The notes beneath the pieces were generated by a model. The model was not told where the DNA came from, made no database searches, and was given only the letters and a program-made list of their open reading frames with translations. DNA of 24,000 nt from Gammaproteobacteria bacterium (GTDB lineage: Bacteria > Pseudomonadota > Gammaproteobacteria > UBA6429 > Thiohalophilaceae): the NCBI GenBank assembly GCA_029881995.1, contig JAOULO010000010.1:38772-62771 (forward strand), written 5' to 3'. Numbering within the stretch: the stretch's first letter is position 1; every line of letters begins with the position of its first letter. Positions 4,869-12,248 of the stretch are shown in pieces. A program made the translations under genes and the position numbers.

Positions 4869-6038
4869 TCAGTTAAACGAAGACGATACTGGGTTTAACA
4901 TCAATTTTGCCGTATCAGCAATCGGCTTCCTTGCTGGCAAAATAGGCCTGAGTTGTTTGAGCACCTGCAGTGCCGTTGCACGATAGCCCGTTAACTTACC
5001 ACCATATAACGTTAACAATGACTCAAGGCTGGCGTGTTGATACAAGATAGTGTCTCTGGGACGATGAAAATAATGATGATTTGTTCTCGGTAAAACCCGC
5101 AGGCCCGAGAAACTGCCAGTCATCTCATCCTGCCCATCAAAATAATGTCCATAGACCTCTAATAAATATTCAATTTCATCATCGAGTGGTTTGGAATTTG
5201 CGGGATCGCCCAAAAATGGGGTCTCAGTCGTTCCCACCATGGTCCCACCCTGCCATGGCATAACAAAGACCGCACGCCTGTCCTGTGGTGCCTCAACGTA
5301 ATAGATTCCATTCGGTGCCGGTTGTGACAACACAATATGTGTTCCCTGCACCAGATCCATTTCCAGTTTGGGTACCTCTGGTGACACACTGTCCAGCACC
5401 CGATTGACCCATGGTCCGGCGGCATTCACTACAACTTTACACTGACATTCTTTTTCCTGATCCTGTTGTTGATAAGCAATGGCAAATTGATGCTGCTGAT
5501 GTGTTATCTGAATAACCCTGGCAGGACATACCAGTTCTGCGCCAAGCTCCATAGCTGACTGCATGACGGACCGTGTCAGCGCTTTATCATCGGTCTGTGC
5601 ATCAAAGTATCGATAGACGGCCTGTAGTGATGTCGTATTCTTTAATTCAAGTCCAGATACAGTATCACGATCGAGTTTTGTAAAACGGGCATCATGGGTG
5701 AAGTTACCCAGCATGGCATATAGAGACAGACCGGCTCTGATCTGCCAGGATCGACGCGAGGTTTCAGGATAAACAGGTATATAAAAGGGAACCAGTTTGA
5801 CCAACTCAGGTGCCAGCTTGAGTAACAGGGCCCGCTCCAGCAGAGCCTTTCTCACCAGACTGAACTGGCCACTTTCAAGATATCGCAAACCACCATGGAT
5901 CAATTTACTGGAACGACTCGATGTCCCTGAGGCCAGCCCATCCTGTTCAAATAGAATAACACTGTAACCGGCAGCCGCAGCTGCCTGCGCCACTCCAACC
6001 CCCTGAATCCCTCCACCAATAACTGCCAGGTCATACAT
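4869..6038 (-). CDS. FAD-dependent oxidoreductase, short glycerol-3-phosphate dehydrogenase/oxidase-like (GlpD-type N-terminus)
   Basis: N-terminal dinucleotide fold YDLAVIGGGIQGVGVA, followed by the GlpD-like signature GTSSRSSKLIHGGLRYLE. 389 aa. An AGGTAA Shine-Dalgarno lies inside the end of the upstream GDPD gene, with a 5-nt gap. Confidence 0.7.
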   Translation of the reverse strand: MYDLAVIGGGIQGVGVAQAAAAAGYSVILFEQDGLASGTSSRSSKLIHGGLRYLESGQFSLVRKALLERALLLKLAPELVKLVPFYIPVYPETSRRSWQIRAGLSLYAMLGNFTHDARFTKLDRDTVSGLELKNTTSLQAVYRYFDAQTDDKALTRSVMQSAMELGAELVCPARVIQITHQQHQFAIAYQQQDQEKECQCKVVVNAAGPWVNRVLDSVSPEVPKLEMDLVQGTHIVLSQPAPNGIYYVEAPQDRRAVFVMPWQGGTMVGTTETPFLGDPANSKPLDDEIEYLLEVYGHYFDGQDEMTGSFSGLRVLPRTNHHYFHRPRDTILYQHASLESLLTLYGGKLTGYRATALQVLKQLRPILPARKPIADTAKLMLNPVSSSFN

Positions 6039-6043
6039 ACAAA

Positions 6044-6790
6044 TTAATTACCTGCAATATCTCGAGTCTGCTCAAGCATTTCTCCAATGGCAAAGGTCTC
6101 AACAAACTCTATTCCTCGTTTATGAAGTGCTACCGCCAGCTTGGGATCGGTACATTCATAAACTGCCAAATGAGTATTATTCAACTTTAAATCACCTTCA
6201 GCAGGCACGGTTTCCAGATCACAAAAAAAGTATTGTGGATTTAGATCAGCAATAGCCTCATTGTTCCTCTCTTCCCAGTCATCATGTACCGCACCTATAG
6301 GCCATTGGTACTGCTCTGAGACATAGGCTAATGCTTCGATACTGTAGGAAATGATGACACACTGATCTTTAACCGGTTCCAGCGTCGATAAAACCTGCTC
6401 AACCATGAATTCAATACCAAACTTTTCCAGGCTGCTTCGTTTTAGTTCGATAAAAACCGTCACCTTAGGATGAGTCTGCATCAACCCGACCAGATCAAGC
6501 AATGTGGTAATTGGGTTATCGGCAAACTTATTACCAAATCGCCCTGAGTCACTGGCACGAAATTCATTTAATTCAGATGCTGTGTAATCATGTAGGCTAC
6601 CTGCTTGATCACAGAGCCGCTGCATGTCCCGATCATGAAATAGAAAGGGAACCTTGTCCTTACTAAGCTGGATATCAACCTCAAGAAAATTTGCTCCTGC
6701 TTCGATGGCTGCCCCCAAACCCACTAGAGTATTCTCAGGGTAATTTAAGGTATAACCACGATGGGCGACCAAGTTAACTGATTTTTCCAT
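6044..6790 (-). CDS. glycerophosphodiester phosphodiesterase (GDPD family, UgpQ-like)
   Basis: 248 aa. GDPD catalytic N-terminus VAHRGYTLNYPENTL...GANFLEVDIQLSKDKVPFLFHD. Confidence 0.8.
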   Translation of the reverse strand: MEKSVNLVAHRGYTLNYPENTLVGLGAAIEAGANFLEVDIQLSKDKVPFLFHDRDMQRLCDQAGSLHDYTASELNEFRASDSGRFGNKFADNPITTLLDLVGLMQTHPKVTVFIELKRSSLEKFGIEFMVEQVLSTLEPVKDQCVIISYSIEALAYVSEQYQWPIGAVHDDWEERNNEAIADLNPQYFFCDLETVPAEGDLKLNNTHLAVYECTDPKLAVALHKRGIEFVETFAIGEMLEQTRDIAGN

Positions 6791-6828
6791 AACTAAATTT
6801 TACAGGTTATTTTTTATTGAAAAAATAA

Positions 6829-6843
6829 TGTGAATAATTCACA
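6829..6843. promoter_or_regulatory. perfect 15-bp palindrome TGTGAATAATTCACA in the GDPD/luxR divergent intergenic region
   Basis: Seen directly: TGTGA-ATAAT-TCACA. The half-sites equal CRP half-sites, but the spacer is 5 nt rather than 6. It lies about 40 bp from the GDPD start and about 120 bp upstream of the luxR TTG start. Confidence 0.3.
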
Positions 6844-6963
6844 AAATTAATGTTAATTTTTCTCTAACATAATTTTACATTTTTTATAGAATTTATGTTA
6901 ATTTTACCCCAGTACAAGGAAGTTTAGACTAATCATTCTAGTACATTAAAAGTGGGTTAATAG

Positions 6964-7710
6964 TTGGAAAACCTCAAACTTTTTGAATTCATAGACCGAC
7001 TAAACACAGCAAATACTTACGACGTGATTCATGGCGTCTGTATGGACTTTTGCGTGCAATATGGTTTTGACAAGTTTATCTATGCTGCCCGCATTCCAAC
7101 CTCTCTCGTCAGTCCTAACTATATATTTATCAACGGCTACCCGCAGGAATGGCGCGATCATTATGTAGAACAGGACTATTTACGAATCGACCCTACAGTT
7201 TCCCACTGTTTTTCAAAAACCACACCAATTTACTGGGAACATATTGTAAATACAGCATGTAAGGAAAATAAAAATGTTGATAAGCTTTTTGCTGAGGCAG
7301 GTAGTCTGGGCCTGCAAAATGGGATCAGTTTTCCAATTCATTGCATCCATGGTGAAAGTGCCATGTTCAGTATGGCGGTCAATCTGAGTACCGACAAATC
7401 CCGGGACATCATTAAAGAAACCGTCGCTCTTGCACATCTGTTTGTTACCTATGTACATGAAGCGGTCGTCCGCGTCCCCGATAATGGGCTGGTCGCCCAG
7501 GTCAATGCACAGCTTACCTCACGCGAGAAAGAGTGCTTACTATGGACAACAGAGGGAAAGACATCCTGGGAGATATCCCAGATATTAAATATTTCTGAAA
7601 GGACTGTAGTTTTTCACATTAATAATGCAGTTAAAAAACTTGATGTTGTCAACAAACAACATGCCGTAGCTCGTGCGATTTCTCTTGGCCATATTAAACC
7701 TGTTATATAA
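6964..7710 (+). CDS. luxR: LuxR-family AHL-responsive transcriptional regulator (autoinducer-binding domain + GerE/LuxR HTH)
   Basis: 248 aa. All six hallmark pocket residues occur at TraR spacing (EW-RDH-Y...RIDP...PIYW...HGES), and the HTH is LTSREKECLLWTTEGKTSWEISQILNISERTVVFHINNAVKKL. The start is TTG. The next in-frame ATG would remove 26 conserved N-terminal residues. Confidence 0.9.
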   Translation: MENLKLFEFIDRLNTANTYDVIHGVCMDFCVQYGFDKFIYAARIPTSLVSPNYIFINGYPQEWRDHYVEQDYLRIDPTVSHCFSKTTPIYWEHIVNTACKENKNVDKLFAEAGSLGLQNGISFPIHCIHGESAMFSMAVNLSTDKSRDIIKETVALAHLFVTYVHEAVVRVPDNGLVAQVNAQLTSREKECLLWTTEGKTSWEISQILNISERTVVFHINNAVKKLDVVNKQHAVARAISLGHIKPVI

Positions 7711-7760
7711 GGGACATTTAGTAAAACAGTTAATACCATGCAGTAAACCTAATGTAATCT

Positions 7761-7780
7761 ACCTGTAATATTTGACAGCT
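7761..7780 (+). promoter_or_regulatory. lux-box-like 20-bp inverted repeat upstream of luxI
   Basis: ACCTGTAATATTTGACAGCT. 7 of 10 positions pair in the dyad, and 14/20 are identical to the V. fischeri lux box ACCTGTAGGATCGTACAGGT as I recall it. Centre is about 72 bp upstream of the luxI ATG. Confidence 0.6.
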
Positions 7781-7842
7781 TACCCAAAGACTTAAATCAA
7801 GATTTACTTCTCCTGACGACAACTTGAATTGGGAGAAATAAT

Positions 7843-8454
7843 ATGACTATCTACTTTGGCAAAGCTGATGAATTTATTTATGACCACCATACACTCTACA
7901 ATATGTTTAGATTCCGCCATCATATATTCCATGATCGACTCAAGTGGGACGTAAATAGTATTGGTGGAATGGAATACGATGAGTTTGATACGTTGAACCC
8001 ATATCATATGATAGCGGTCAACCACGATCAACAGGTAGAGGCATGCTGGCGTCTCTTACCAACGACAGGCCCCTATATGTTACAGAAAACATTTTCACAA
8101 TTGCTTAAGGGTGAAAATGCACCCTCACAAAATGACGTGTGGGAGTTGAGTCGGTTTGCTGTGATCTCCTCTAATCAGAAAAAATCAACCCAGGCGGTAA
8201 TGAGTGAACTTTCATTTCAAATGTTTCAGCAAACGTATGAATTTGCTATTCAAAATAATATAAAATCCTATGTTACCGTTGTTAGTGCCGCCGTTGAAAG
8301 AATGTTTATGCGTGCAGGCTTTCCTATGCGACGGTTTGGTGATGGTGAGTCACAAAAAATTGGCAAAATTACCACAGTTGCATGCTGGATGGATGTAAAT
8401 GAACAATATAAGGATGCAGCATATCAGCTAAGTAATAGTCGTAATGCCGCATAA
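7843..8454 (+). CDS. luxI: acyl-homoserine-lactone synthase (LuxI family)
   Basis: 203 aa. LuxI signature residues are present: FRFRHHIFHDRLKWDV, EYDEFD, CWRLLPTTGPYML, WELSRFAV. A GGGAGA Shine-Dalgarno lies 6 nt upstream of the ATG. Confidence 0.9.
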   Translation: MTIYFGKADEFIYDHHTLYNMFRFRHHIFHDRLKWDVNSIGGMEYDEFDTLNPYHMIAVNHDQQVEACWRLLPTTGPYMLQKTFSQLLKGENAPSQNDVWELSRFAVISSNQKKSTQAVMSELSFQMFQQTYEFAIQNNIKSYVTVVSAAVERMFMRAGFPMRRFGDGESQKIGKITTVACWMDVNEQYKDAAYQLSNSRNAA

Positions 8455-8466
8455 GTCTTTAATGTG

Positions 8467-8520
8467 CTGTGAACAGGTATCTTTTCAGGCTACAATACCT
8501 GTTCACAGTCTCTATTTTTC
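8467..8520 (+). terminator. strong hairpin plus T-tract between luxI and the second luxR (terminator/attenuator candidate)
   Basis: Perfect 14-bp arms CTGTGAACAGGTAT (8467-8480) and ATACCTGTTCACAG (8495-8508) with a 14-nt loop, followed by TCTCTATTTTTC. Starts 13 nt after the luxI stop. Confidence 0.5.
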
Positions 8521-8536
8521 AAATCAGGTTATTAAA

Positions 8537-9262
8537 ATGGATTTTGACAGCTTATTGGGAAATTTAGAAAATACTAATTGTGTTGAGCAACTTCGAAGCT
8601 GTTGCAATATTTTTGTAGATATACATAACTATGATTATTATTCATTATATGGCTCGATATATACAAGCTTACTAAGTCCTTCCTTACATAAAATTTCAGG
8701 CCCCCATAACAAACGTCCTAAAAATAATGAAACCGAACATGATATCTTACAGACATGCATAGATTCTACAACACCGGTTATATTAGGAAATTTTTCTGAT
8801 TCAAAGTTAATATTTAATCCATTAATCCGTACTATTCACAAACCAAATGCAAGAAAGCTTGATATCTACTTCCCTATACATTTTCCTGTTGGGAAAATTG
8901 CTATTTTTCATCTAACCAAGCGATCCAAAAAAGAAAACATAGAAGAGAGTGTATTTAATATACTACCTAAAGGTAGACAGTTTGCCAGTGAGGCAGGACT
9001 TGCGTTTGTATCACTTATAGAAAAAGAATGGGAAAATATTTATCCCGAACTTTCACAACGAGAGCGCCATTGTCTTTTATTAACTGCGGATGGTTTGTCA
9101 CCAAAAAATATCGCCGAAGAAATAGGCCTTTCCCAGCATACTGTGATCTTCTACTTAAAAAACGTCAGAAAAAAATATGATGCTAAAAATATTCAAAGTG
9201 CCATTAGTAAAGCCATTTTAAAGGGTGACATCATGCCCCAAATGGTTTCAGTTGAAACATGA
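8537..9262 (+). CDS. second LuxR-family regulator with a degenerate autoinducer-binding-like N-domain and intact LuxR/GerE HTH
   Basis: The HTH is LSQRERHCLLLTADGLSPKNIAEEIGLSQHTVIFYLKNVRKKY. The N-domain aligns by eye with the neighbouring LuxR (TSLLSPS / TSLVSPN, STTPV / KTTPI, FPIHFPVGKIAIF / FPIHCIHGESAMF). The track start at 8444 would overlap the luxI stop and read through the hairpin, so I chose the ATG at 8537 (241 aa). Confidence 0.75.
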   Translation: MDFDSLLGNLENTNCVEQLRSCCNIFVDIHNYDYYSLYGSIYTSLLSPSLHKISGPHNKRPKNNETEHDILQTCIDSTTPVILGNFSDSKLIFNPLIRTIHKPNARKLDIYFPIHFPVGKIAIFHLTKRSKKENIEESVFNILPKGRQFASEAGLAFVSLIEKEWENIYPELSQRERHCLLLTADGLSPKNIAEEIGLSQHTVIFYLKNVRKKYDAKNIQSAISKAILKGDIMPQMVSVET

Positions 9263-9739
9263 CTGTTCGCCAGGCTTAGCTTCATGTAGCCAGTTCATAT
9301 ATGCTTTCACTTCAGCAGTATTTTCTTCAGGTGCCCAACTGGCAAAGTCTTTATCGGTCAGCGGAATATATGGTCCCTGCTTGACCTCAAAAAAAACGGC
9401 CCCGTCTTCCAATGCAAGGACGGTATGCCATGTATCAGGTTTTATTTCTGCTCCCAGCACATCACCATTAGCTGAAAACTCTATACGTTCTGTGACTTTT
9501 CCACCATCATCAAATATCAATGCTGCAAAAGCCCCTTTTACAGCAATAAACAGTTCAGTCTTTTCTTTTTCAGGGTGTCGATGAGGCCTGACATAACTAT
9601 CCGTTTGCATGGCAATAAAAAGTTTCTGTAGCGGGGCATCAAGCGATTCATGCAGGTTTAGATTTGTTCTTCTTCTGGGTGATGAAACAGCTTCCTGATT
9701 GAGCCTTTCCAGCATTTTTTTATCCAGTTGCTTAATCAT
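9248..9739 (-). CDS. WbuC-family cupin-fold metalloprotein
   Basis: 163 aa. The N-terminal SPRRRTNLNLHESLDAPLQKLFIAM....YVRPHRH matches the WbuC-family pattern as I recall it. The ATG is 1 nt after the upstream gene's TAA, with a GGGTGA Shine-Dalgarno. Confidence 0.7.
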   Translation of the reverse strand: MIKQLDKKMLERLNQEAVSSPRRRTNLNLHESLDAPLQKLFIAMQTDSYVRPHRHPEKEKTELFIAVKGAFAALIFDDGGKVTERIEFSANGDVLGAEIKPDTWHTVLALEDGAVFFEVKQGPYIPLTDKDFASWAPEENTAEVKAYMNWLHEAKPGEQSCFN

Positions 9740-12169: not shown

Positions 12170-12248
12170 TCACAGATTATAAAAAGGTTAAGGATAGGCT
12201 GCGAGCTAAAAATAAGAAGTTAGTACGAGAGTGTAATCACATCGCCTT

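Follow-up and report, generated by a model that had tools for sequence, protein, structure and literature searches.

A LuxR1 paralog without the acyl-homoserine lactone contact residues in a conserved gammaproteobacterial luxI locus

Introduction

The canonical LuxR-type receptors of quorum sensing (QS), such as TraR, LasR, QscR, RhlR and SdiA, share a two-domain plan, in which an alpha/beta/alpha N-terminal domain is followed by a GerE-type helix-turn-helix (HTH) domain. Here we describe luxR2 (positions 8537-9262, plus strand), which encodes a protein of 241 residues built to the same plan, in a 24,000-nucleotide stretch of contig JAOULO010000010.1 from a Gammaproteobacteria bacterium; the whole of this stretch is called the window below. 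The best structural matches of LuxR2 are canonical receptors, and its gene stands beside luxI, the gene for the synthase that makes N-acyl homoserine lactone (AHL). Of the features by which a LuxR-type receptor is recognised, LuxR2 has the GerE domain, the homology and predicted fold of the N-terminal domain, and the HTH triad common to the canonical receptors. Unlike them, it has no match to PF03472 (Autoind_bind) and none of the six hallmark residues of the AHL pocket, its pocket-capping segments are degenerate, and both the equivalent of TraR W184 and the GKT motif are lost.

Proteins with an altered pocket have been described before. PluR, PauR and the OryR/PsoR class are LuxR-type proteins with substituted hallmark residues, as is LuxR2. 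However, they are solos with a conserved alternative motif and they still score as Autoind_bind, neither of which holds for LuxR2; in the plant-type solos W57 and Y61 alone are changed, as against all six hallmarks here. LuxR2 shows no conserved alternative motif of the PluR/PauR kind, and no ppyS/darABC-type synthase linkage is found among its neighbours. Nor is it a solo, luxI lying 82 bp upstream on the same strand, with the exception of two related loci (L008 and L078) in which luxI has been lost. VisN and VisR of Sinorhizobium are paired LuxR-type regulators that control motility and have a receptor-like N-terminal domain with no known AHL ligand. They are not linked to a synthase, unlike LuxR2, and the resemblance of LuxR2 to VisR is in the HTH only (NCBIfam match of residues 171-232, E = 7.8e-10).

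Extra regulators within QS loci are also known. TrlR/TraS of Agrobacterium and CerN of Cereibacter inactivate a full-length partner and, like LuxR2, are the products of duplicated receptor genes kept within a QS system, with a possible modulatory role towards the cognate receptor (PMC11655674). They have no HTH, retain an intact AHL pocket, and act in an AHL-dependent way. LuxR2 is the reverse, with the HTH kept and the pocket lost, and so does not have the make-up of a truncated anti-activator, in which the autoinducer-binding domain is present and the HTH absent. In the cerR/cerM/cerN/cerI cluster of Cereibacter, at most one hallmark is changed (PMC11655674). The tandem LuxR solos of Subramoni et al. 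(2015; PMC4338825) are adjacent paralogs, 30-40% identical and presumed to be duplicates, with substitutions at invariant residues, all of which recalls the present case; luxI is neither between nor next to them, and they were found via Autoind_bind, whereas the order here is luxR1-luxI-luxR2 (R1-I-R2) and the hallmark loss is complete. RsaL and RsaM (PMC10710839) are like LuxR2 in being extra regulators embedded in a luxR/luxI locus with a possible feedback role, but they belong to unrelated protein families, while LuxR2 is derived from a receptor. In the full-text literature searches that were made, we met no account of a paralog that is full-length, linked to a synthase, devoid of all six hallmarks and conserved in an R1-I-R2 module. 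Altered-pocket LuxR solos are already known, and it is the presence of a probably signal-blind paralog inside a conserved synthase locus that sets LuxR2 apart.

Results

Relationship of LuxR2 to LuxR1

The list of open reading frames (ORFs) in the window has luxR1 (6964-7710, plus strand), luxI (7843-8454, plus strand) and luxR2 as co-directional ORFs, at the coordinates given in the initial annotation. LuxR1 (248 residues, TTG start) is a canonical AHL receptor, with Pfam matches to Autoind_bind (2.5e-36) and GerE (4.3e-19), and its best sequence matches in the PDB are QscR and LasR. LuxI (203 residues) is an AHL synthase (Autoind_synth, 1.5e-42) and is 64-76% identical to its orthologs. In LuxR2, a Pfam search identifies GerE only (PF00196, residues 172-225, positions 9050-9211 on the plus strand), at 50.9 bits against a gathering cut-off of 23.5 (E = 1.2e-13). 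The profile check against PF03472 that the initial annotation had called for gives no match for the window copy, even at E<=10, and 8 of 10 LuxR2 family members match this domain weakly (best 1.4e-05).

A full-length BLASTP comparison of LuxR1 and LuxR2 gives 24% identity (E = 2e-19), most of the score coming from the HTH; with the N-terminal domains only, E = 4e-06. Profile-profile comparison of the two families using hhalign gives E = 4e-40 for the full length and, for the N-terminal domain only, a probability of 99.4% and E = 5e-21 over 158 columns. The N-domain profile of LuxR2 matches single N-domains of the LuxR1 clade at E values of 1e-12 to 1e-17. The score falls steadily with growing distance of the LuxR1 relative, and neither TraR nor LasR is matched (E = 0.1-0.2). 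Because the similarity is specific to the clade of the cognate receptor, LuxR2 is a duplicate of a LuxR1-like ancestor and not an unrelated LuxR, in agreement with the common ancestry first suggested from a manual alignment. Descent from this specific ancestor also explains why the generic Pfam Autoind_bind domain misses LuxR2. When the PDB was searched with the LuxR2 sequence (phmmer) or the profile of its family, the HTH alone was matched, and these searches are therefore uninformative on the N-terminal domain.

The ligand pocket

Residues were numbered against TraR, in a sequence identical to PDB chain 1h0m_A, placed in a merged alignment of the LuxR1 and LuxR2 families. At TraR positions 53/57/61/70/71/85/113, LuxR1 has Y/W/Y/D/P/W/G, and the six hallmarks (W63, Y67, D76, P77, W91 and G120 in LuxR1 numbering) show no variation in its family (31 of 31 sequences). 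It had been noted from the sequence that LuxR1 carries these residues at exactly the TraR spacing; all six are indeed present, but the spacing from W85 to G113 is 29 rather than 28.

At the same positions LuxR2 has P56, R60, N64, H68, D69, L83 and D109, so that the window copy has none of the six hallmarks (TraR W57, Y61, D70, P71, W85 and G113). The loss is thus more complete than the initial annotation had claimed. A retained equivalent of Gly113 had been proposed, but the glycine concerned, G119 of the motif FPIHFPVGK, aligns with TraR G123, and since the true G113 position is Asp109, the count is 0/6 and not 1/6. The earlier assignment of His, Asp and Leu to positions 70, 71 and 85 stands, but at positions 57 and 61 the residues are Arg and Asn. 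Gly and Lys had been read there by counting back from the TTP motif with no gap, whereas in the profile alignment LuxR2 has a deletion of 5 residues, relative to LuxR1, between TraR positions 61 and 70. Both positions are non-aromatic in the ungapped register and in the profile alignment alike, and the profile alignment, which might have returned Trp, Tyr or Asp to the pocket, does not do so.

The LuxR2 family set used here has 13 members, and W57, Y61 and W85 are missing from all of them. Position 57 is occupied by R/V/I/S/I/T/A/V/A/G/G/T/T across the family, while position 113 is Ser in nine members, Gly in three, and Asp in the window copy. We mapped onto both families 21 LasR positions which we take, from the LasR/TraR structure literature, to be those that contact the ligand. 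In the LuxR1 family, the pocket columns are much more conserved than the remainder of the N-terminal domain (mean entropy 1.28 against 2.12; Mann-Whitney p=0.0009). No such difference is seen in the LuxR2 family, where these columns vary as much as the others (2.02 against 1.77, p=0.30). What the LuxR2 family conserves is the β-sheet core (I110, F112, P113, H115 and G119) and the helix positions C23, G39 and P80, together with G146 and F149 on the long helix. The constraint on the pocket has therefore been released across the whole family, and the residues present argue against binding of AHL by LuxR2. No conserved set of replacement residues is seen in the canonical pocket across the LuxR2 family, which disfavours a shared ligand there.

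Predicted structure

AlphaFold2 (AF2) was used to model LuxR2 twice. The main model, using a multiple sequence alignment of 59 rows from the R2 and R1 families, has a predicted local distance difference test score (pLDDT) of 88 and a predicted template modelling score (pTM) of 0.79; a control, using 9 rows from the R2 family only, has a pLDDT of 80 and a pTM of 0.65. The two have an identical order of secondary-structure elements. For both, the best Foldseek matches are RhlR, QscR, SdiA and the ligand-binding domain of LasR, with E ~1e-12 and template modelling (TM) scores of ~0.65-0.73, so that the structure prediction proposed at the outset returns the AHL-receptor fold. On homology and prediction together, the N-terminal domain (residues 1-165, positions 8537-9031 on the plus strand) is modelled as a divergent form of the autoinducer-binding-domain fold, kept without the AHL-contact residues.

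The least confident residues in both models are approximately 55-70 and 85-106, which are non-helical and assigned as coil by DSSP; residues 58-63 fall below a pLDDT of 50 in the control. In canonical receptors, the equivalents of these two segments are the helices which bear W57 and Y61 and which, beyond W85, form a cap over the pocket. In LuxR2, the region that they span (residues 55-106, positions 8699-8854, plus strand) carries R60, N64, H68, D69 and L83. The sequence as a whole would best be explained if LuxR2 has retained the fold of a receptor, along with the long helix for dimerisation and a working GerE-type HTH, and has lost the AHL pocket.

The DNA-binding domain

No part of LuxR2 is better conserved than the HTH. 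The triad E176/L180/G186 (E178/L182/G188 in TraR), already described as intact in the window copy, is invariant in 13 of 13 family members, and the window copy retains 24 of the 27 HTH columns that are conserved in the other members. On the recognition helix, H201, K208 and R211 are invariant in LuxR2, against R, N and V in the LuxR1 family; the Trp at TraR W184, invariant in LuxR1 and TraR, is Leu in LuxR2; and GKT, a motif of the HTH region, is gone. These family-specific invariants, with the loss of the Trp and of GKT, point to a DNA specificity for LuxR2 that differs from that of LuxR1. On the long helix, L143, F149, A150 and R159 are common to LuxR2 and LuxR1, while the H-E-A motif, which is highly conserved on the dimer helix of the LuxR1 family, is replaced in LuxR2.

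Promoter and intergenic regions

A lux box, ACCTGTAATATTTGACAGCT, lies at positions 7761-7780 (plus strand), 63 nt 5' of the luxI ATG, and is the sole CTGT-N8-ACAG site in the window. The lux box is found 60-68 nt 5' of luxI in seven loci. In L008, where luxI is absent, the box and its promoter region lie directly 5' of luxR2, the box being at 155 nt. Most loci have a second conserved block, with the consensus GTTTAACTACTCCTGAC, some 25-30 nt 3' of the lux box (window positions 7797-7812; approximately columns 110-128 of alignment A6). Its spacing alone suggests the -10 region of a class-II LuxR-dependent promoter, in which the centre of the box would lie near -42.

A perfect inverted repeat of 14 nt lies in the 82-bp spacer between luxI and luxR2 (8467-8508, plus strand), with a T-rich stretch after it, and is predicted to form a hairpin of -21.9 kcal/mol (z=-4.1). 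Strong hairpins occur in five of six luxI-luxR2 spacers, with z from -2.2 to -5.6 (window 8467-8508; L001:7482-7563, L004:7509-7589, L007:6276-6349 and L009:3132-3237), the spacer of L010 having none. Their sequences are unrelated and their loop lengths vary, so the hairpin is conserved as structure and not as sequence. Its probable function is to set the ratio of luxI to luxR2, whether as a partial terminator, an attenuator or an element of mRNA stability. A lux-box-like operator was considered and rejected: an RNA hairpin suits the loop lengths, ~8 to ~21 nt between loci, and the unrelated sequences better than does an operator of fixed spacing. A dispersed repetitive extragenic palindromic (REP) element was also rejected, as the repeat is unique within the window. 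The 27 nt that separate the hairpin from the luxR2 ATG show no sigma-70-like promoter.

A longer luxR2 ORF is available from an ATG at 8444, but it overlaps the luxI stop, crosses the hairpin, and is not conserved in orthologs. In the ortholog alignment, luxR2 always begins at the equivalent of 8537, with M-x-F/I-D, and we therefore take 8537 as the start.

Two loci have lost the synthase, apparently independently. In L008 (3476-3675) luxI is cleanly absent, with LuxR1 and LuxR2 retained, and in L078 (3007-3607) it has been cut to its C-terminal 88 codons (residues 116-203) and the lux box is gone, while LuxR1 and LuxR2 are intact. This suggests that the LuxR1+LuxR2 pair may also work without self-made AHL. 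Because LuxR2 persists with LuxR1 after the loss of the synthase, it can be regarded as part of the lux-box unit, at least ancestrally.

Distribution and evolution

A search of 5.8 billion proteins with the single LuxR2 sequence returned LuxR2 itself alone, and its orthologs were therefore found through synteny with LuxR1. Orthologs of LuxR1 are 60-83% identical, and their contigs carry an ORF of 241-245 residues, with a GerE match only, downstream of luxI. The context is recurrent, with FGGY, DAO and GDPD genes upstream of R1-I-R2 and DUF6016, aldolase/SDR and DUF123 genes downstream, and a LuxR2 ORF (241-253 residues) is conserved in position in at least ten loci. When 1.84 billion representatives were scanned exhaustively by HMMER with the LuxR2 N-domain, only four other proteins were found, and a profile search gave nine matches, including a deeper branch of 253-residue proteins (P0130-P0132) that also has R1-I-R2 synteny. 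One candidate, P0125, is a highly repetitive protein of 595 residues that matches LuxR2 residues 14-77 in four stretches (E = 2.4e-07); it was rejected as probably repeat-driven or spurious.

In a set of genomes from 185,579 species, a full-length LuxR2 relative is found in four species, all of them metagenome-assembled genomes of uncultured Gammaproteobacteria and one labelled Chromatiales. LuxR1 relatives at ~46-51% identity have luxR-luxI and no LuxR2. These two results confine the duplication to a shallow clade, yet LuxR2 is only ~24% identical to LuxR1. The P0130-P0132 branch (L012:1167-1928) is without the 5-residue deletion of the core family, keeps Tyr at TraR Y53, and still scores weakly with PF03472, so that the loss of the pocket may here be at an earlier stage.

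It is worth adding that in two loci of these more distant LuxR1 relatives (L076:5512-5961 and L077:3143-3556) luxI is followed by a small ORF of 137-149 residues with no Pfam match, and then by a GGDEF/EAL gene. The two small ORFs share the motifs HC..G, YDW..(L/I)DG, VEW...G(I/V)LQLHC and FEY(Y/H)AP. They were considered as HTH-less relatives of LuxR2 and rejected, there being no similarity (E>=0.05).

LuxR2 evolves 2-6 times faster than LuxR1. Between the window and L009, amino-acid identity is 82% for LuxR1, 76% for LuxI and 70-79% for the flanking genes, as against 37% for LuxR2. The proportion of synonymous differences (pS) is 0.65-0.94, which is saturated in every pair, so that the ratio of nonsynonymous to synonymous rates (dN/dS) is not quantifiable. 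The proportion of nonsynonymous differences (pN) is nevertheless far below pS, for example 0.14 vs 0.87 between the luxR2 genes of L001 and L007, and this indicates that luxR2 is under purifying selection.

Genomic context

The Pfam assignments of the genes around the module in the window are GDPD, DAO, DUF6016, aldolase/SDR, DUF123, GST and LysR. The DUF6016 (cupin-like) gene (9248-9739, minus strand), which serves as a marker of the conserved chromosomal context, is convergent with luxR2, and its 3' end overlaps that of luxR2 by 15 bp. Such an overlap, of 14-21 bp with no terminator between the genes, is seen in the window (9248-9262) and in L001, L004, L007, L008, L009, L010 and L013. The convergent overlap is present in every locus examined except the P0130 contig, in which DUF6016 is upstream of luxR1. 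Convergent transcription could interfere with either gene.

In the window (12170-12248) DUF123 is directly followed by a GST-like gene, the Pirin gene that separates them in L001, L004, L007, L008, L010 and the P0130 contig being missing. The luxR1-luxI-luxR2 block (6001-9500) has a GC content of 0.36-0.40 against 0.44-0.53 in the flanks, which is compatible with either an old acquisition of the module or AT-rich regulatory genes. Rfam and tRNA scans of the window gave no matches.

Discussion

The reading that we favour, and that we regard as about evenly poised between right and wrong, takes LuxR2 to be a copy of LuxR1 that is blind to AHL, is expressed from the lux box through the hairpin, and acts without ligand at DNA sites of its own as a second-tier or feedback regulator. 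On this proposal, luxR2 would be the distal gene of a lux-box-driven luxI-luxR2 unit with an attenuating hairpin between the two genes. LuxR1 with AHL bound would activate the lux box, and some LuxR2 would be produced. LuxR2 would fold and bind DNA without a ligand, and with a recognition helix that differs from that of LuxR1 it would probably bind its own sites. It could in this way serve as a relay, a second-tier regulator or a feedback regulator of the quorum response, the direction of its effect being one that we infer.

A number of points weigh against this proposal. The modelled N-terminal domain of LuxR2 possibly contains a residual cavity, and the measured release of constraint on the pocket depends on the list of 21 contact positions that we presume to be the right ones. 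Co-transcription of luxI and luxR2 through the hairpin is presumed also. LuxR2 is kept both in L078, which has no lux box, and in L010, whose spacer has none, so that it cannot depend on a lux box everywhere. Nothing convincing was found upstream of luxR1 or elsewhere as a candidate LuxR2 operator or second conserved box. Finally, the window copy of luxR2 may be under relaxed constraint: its nonsynonymous distance (dN) to L009 is 0.63, as against 0.11 for LuxR1, and its GC content at third codon positions (GC3) is 0.26, as against 0.34-0.41 in its neighbours, while each ortholog matches its own neighbours.

A more specific idea, which we hold tentatively and think somewhat doubtful, is that the arrangement constitutes a previously unrecognised kind of quorum-sensing governor, in which a blinded copy of the receptor, with HTH and dimer scaffold intact and placed under the receptor's own lux-box promoter, either feeds back on the circuit, as a heterodimer with LuxR1 or at its own operators, or acts as a relay between the quorum signal and a separate regulon.

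LuxR2 might instead be an anti-activator or heterodimer partner of LuxR1, pairing through the N-terminal domain and dimer helix or competing for the lux box and so damping or reshaping the response, as a negative feedback derived from the receptor, in the manner of TrlR, RsaL or RsaM; this is in our judgement a live alternative, but an unlikely one. LuxR2 does come from a LuxR1-like ancestor and has kept the scaffold and the four shared residues of the long helix, it always accompanies LuxR1 even in the two loci without an intact luxI, and its position 3' of the lux-box promoter is the wiring expected of a feedback element; TrlR with TraR and CerN with CerM are also precedents in which a LuxR homolog works against its full-length partner (PMC11655674). 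However, the known anti-activators derived from LuxR have no HTH, and the HTH of LuxR2 is strongly conserved. Its recognition helix is unlike that of LuxR1 at invariant positions, so that competition between the two at a single box is unexpected. In addition, the H-E-A motif of the dimer helix has been replaced, and the faster evolution of LuxR2 is untypical of a tightly co-evolving interface.

The new ligand specificity suggested in the initial annotation fares less well, and we consider it improbable that a remodelled pocket lets LuxR2 sense a ligand other than AHL, as PluR does pyrones, PauR dialkylresorcinols, and the plant-signal solos their own ligands. The models do keep the receptor fold, a few positions on the β-sheet floor are conserved in the family (S40, S111, F121 and H125), and there are precedents for LuxR proteins with altered pockets (PMC4235431 and PMC4414361). 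Set against this, the pocket columns of LuxR2 vary like the background with no conserved replacements, the capping segments are low-confidence coil with a 5-residue deletion, and the conserved neighbourhood contains no candidate gene for signal synthesis other than luxI.

That luxR2 is decaying in the window genome, and will soon be a pseudogene of an otherwise functional family, seems to us very improbable, although the window copy is certainly the most deviant one. It is 30-41% identical to every other LuxR2, forms the longest branch of the LuxR2 tree, and is the least PF03472-like member of the family. The pairing of the window with L009 has 200/200 bootstraps for LuxR1 and 0-10/200 for LuxR2, and three-taxon arithmetic assigns to the window branch a dN of ~0.42 for LuxR2 and ~0.05 for LuxR1, with ~0.21 for LuxR2 on the L009 branch. 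The GC content of the gene is 0.33 against 0.40-0.45 in its neighbours, and its low GC3 is unlike that of every ortholog. However, the ORF is full-length and intact, with neither frameshift nor stop; 35 of 45 family-conserved columns are retained and the replacements in the others are mostly conservative, with ~20-25% of the variable columns matching the family; the HTH is well preserved; and the AF2 fold is confident. We read this as a lineage-specific relaxation or acceleration rather than outright decay. The GC shift and the long branch fit both AT-biased relaxed constraint and xenologous replacement from an unsampled lineage.

Lastly, luxI adjoins luxR2 and the fold is retained, but binding of the cognate AHL by non-canonical contacts is hardly credible given the change of W57, Y61, D70, W85 and G113 to Arg, Asn, His, Leu and Asp, the lack of any conserved replacement set in the family, and the keeping of LuxR2 where luxI has been lost.

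The proposal of an AHL-blind second regulator in the quorum circuit has consequences for how such regulators are sought. Altered-pocket LuxR proteins have usually been studied as solos and found via Autoind_bind. LuxR2 has diverged so far that standard domain searches miss it, and censuses of QS regulators may for this reason undercount accessory regulators derived from receptors. The module itself is small, consisting of three genes, one lux box and one hairpin, and the variants that have lost luxI and kept both regulators suggest that the R1+R2 pair may also serve in eavesdropping on the signals of other cells. If the proposal is true, hidden LuxR2-like paralogs, invisible to Pfam-based censuses, may exist in other lineages.

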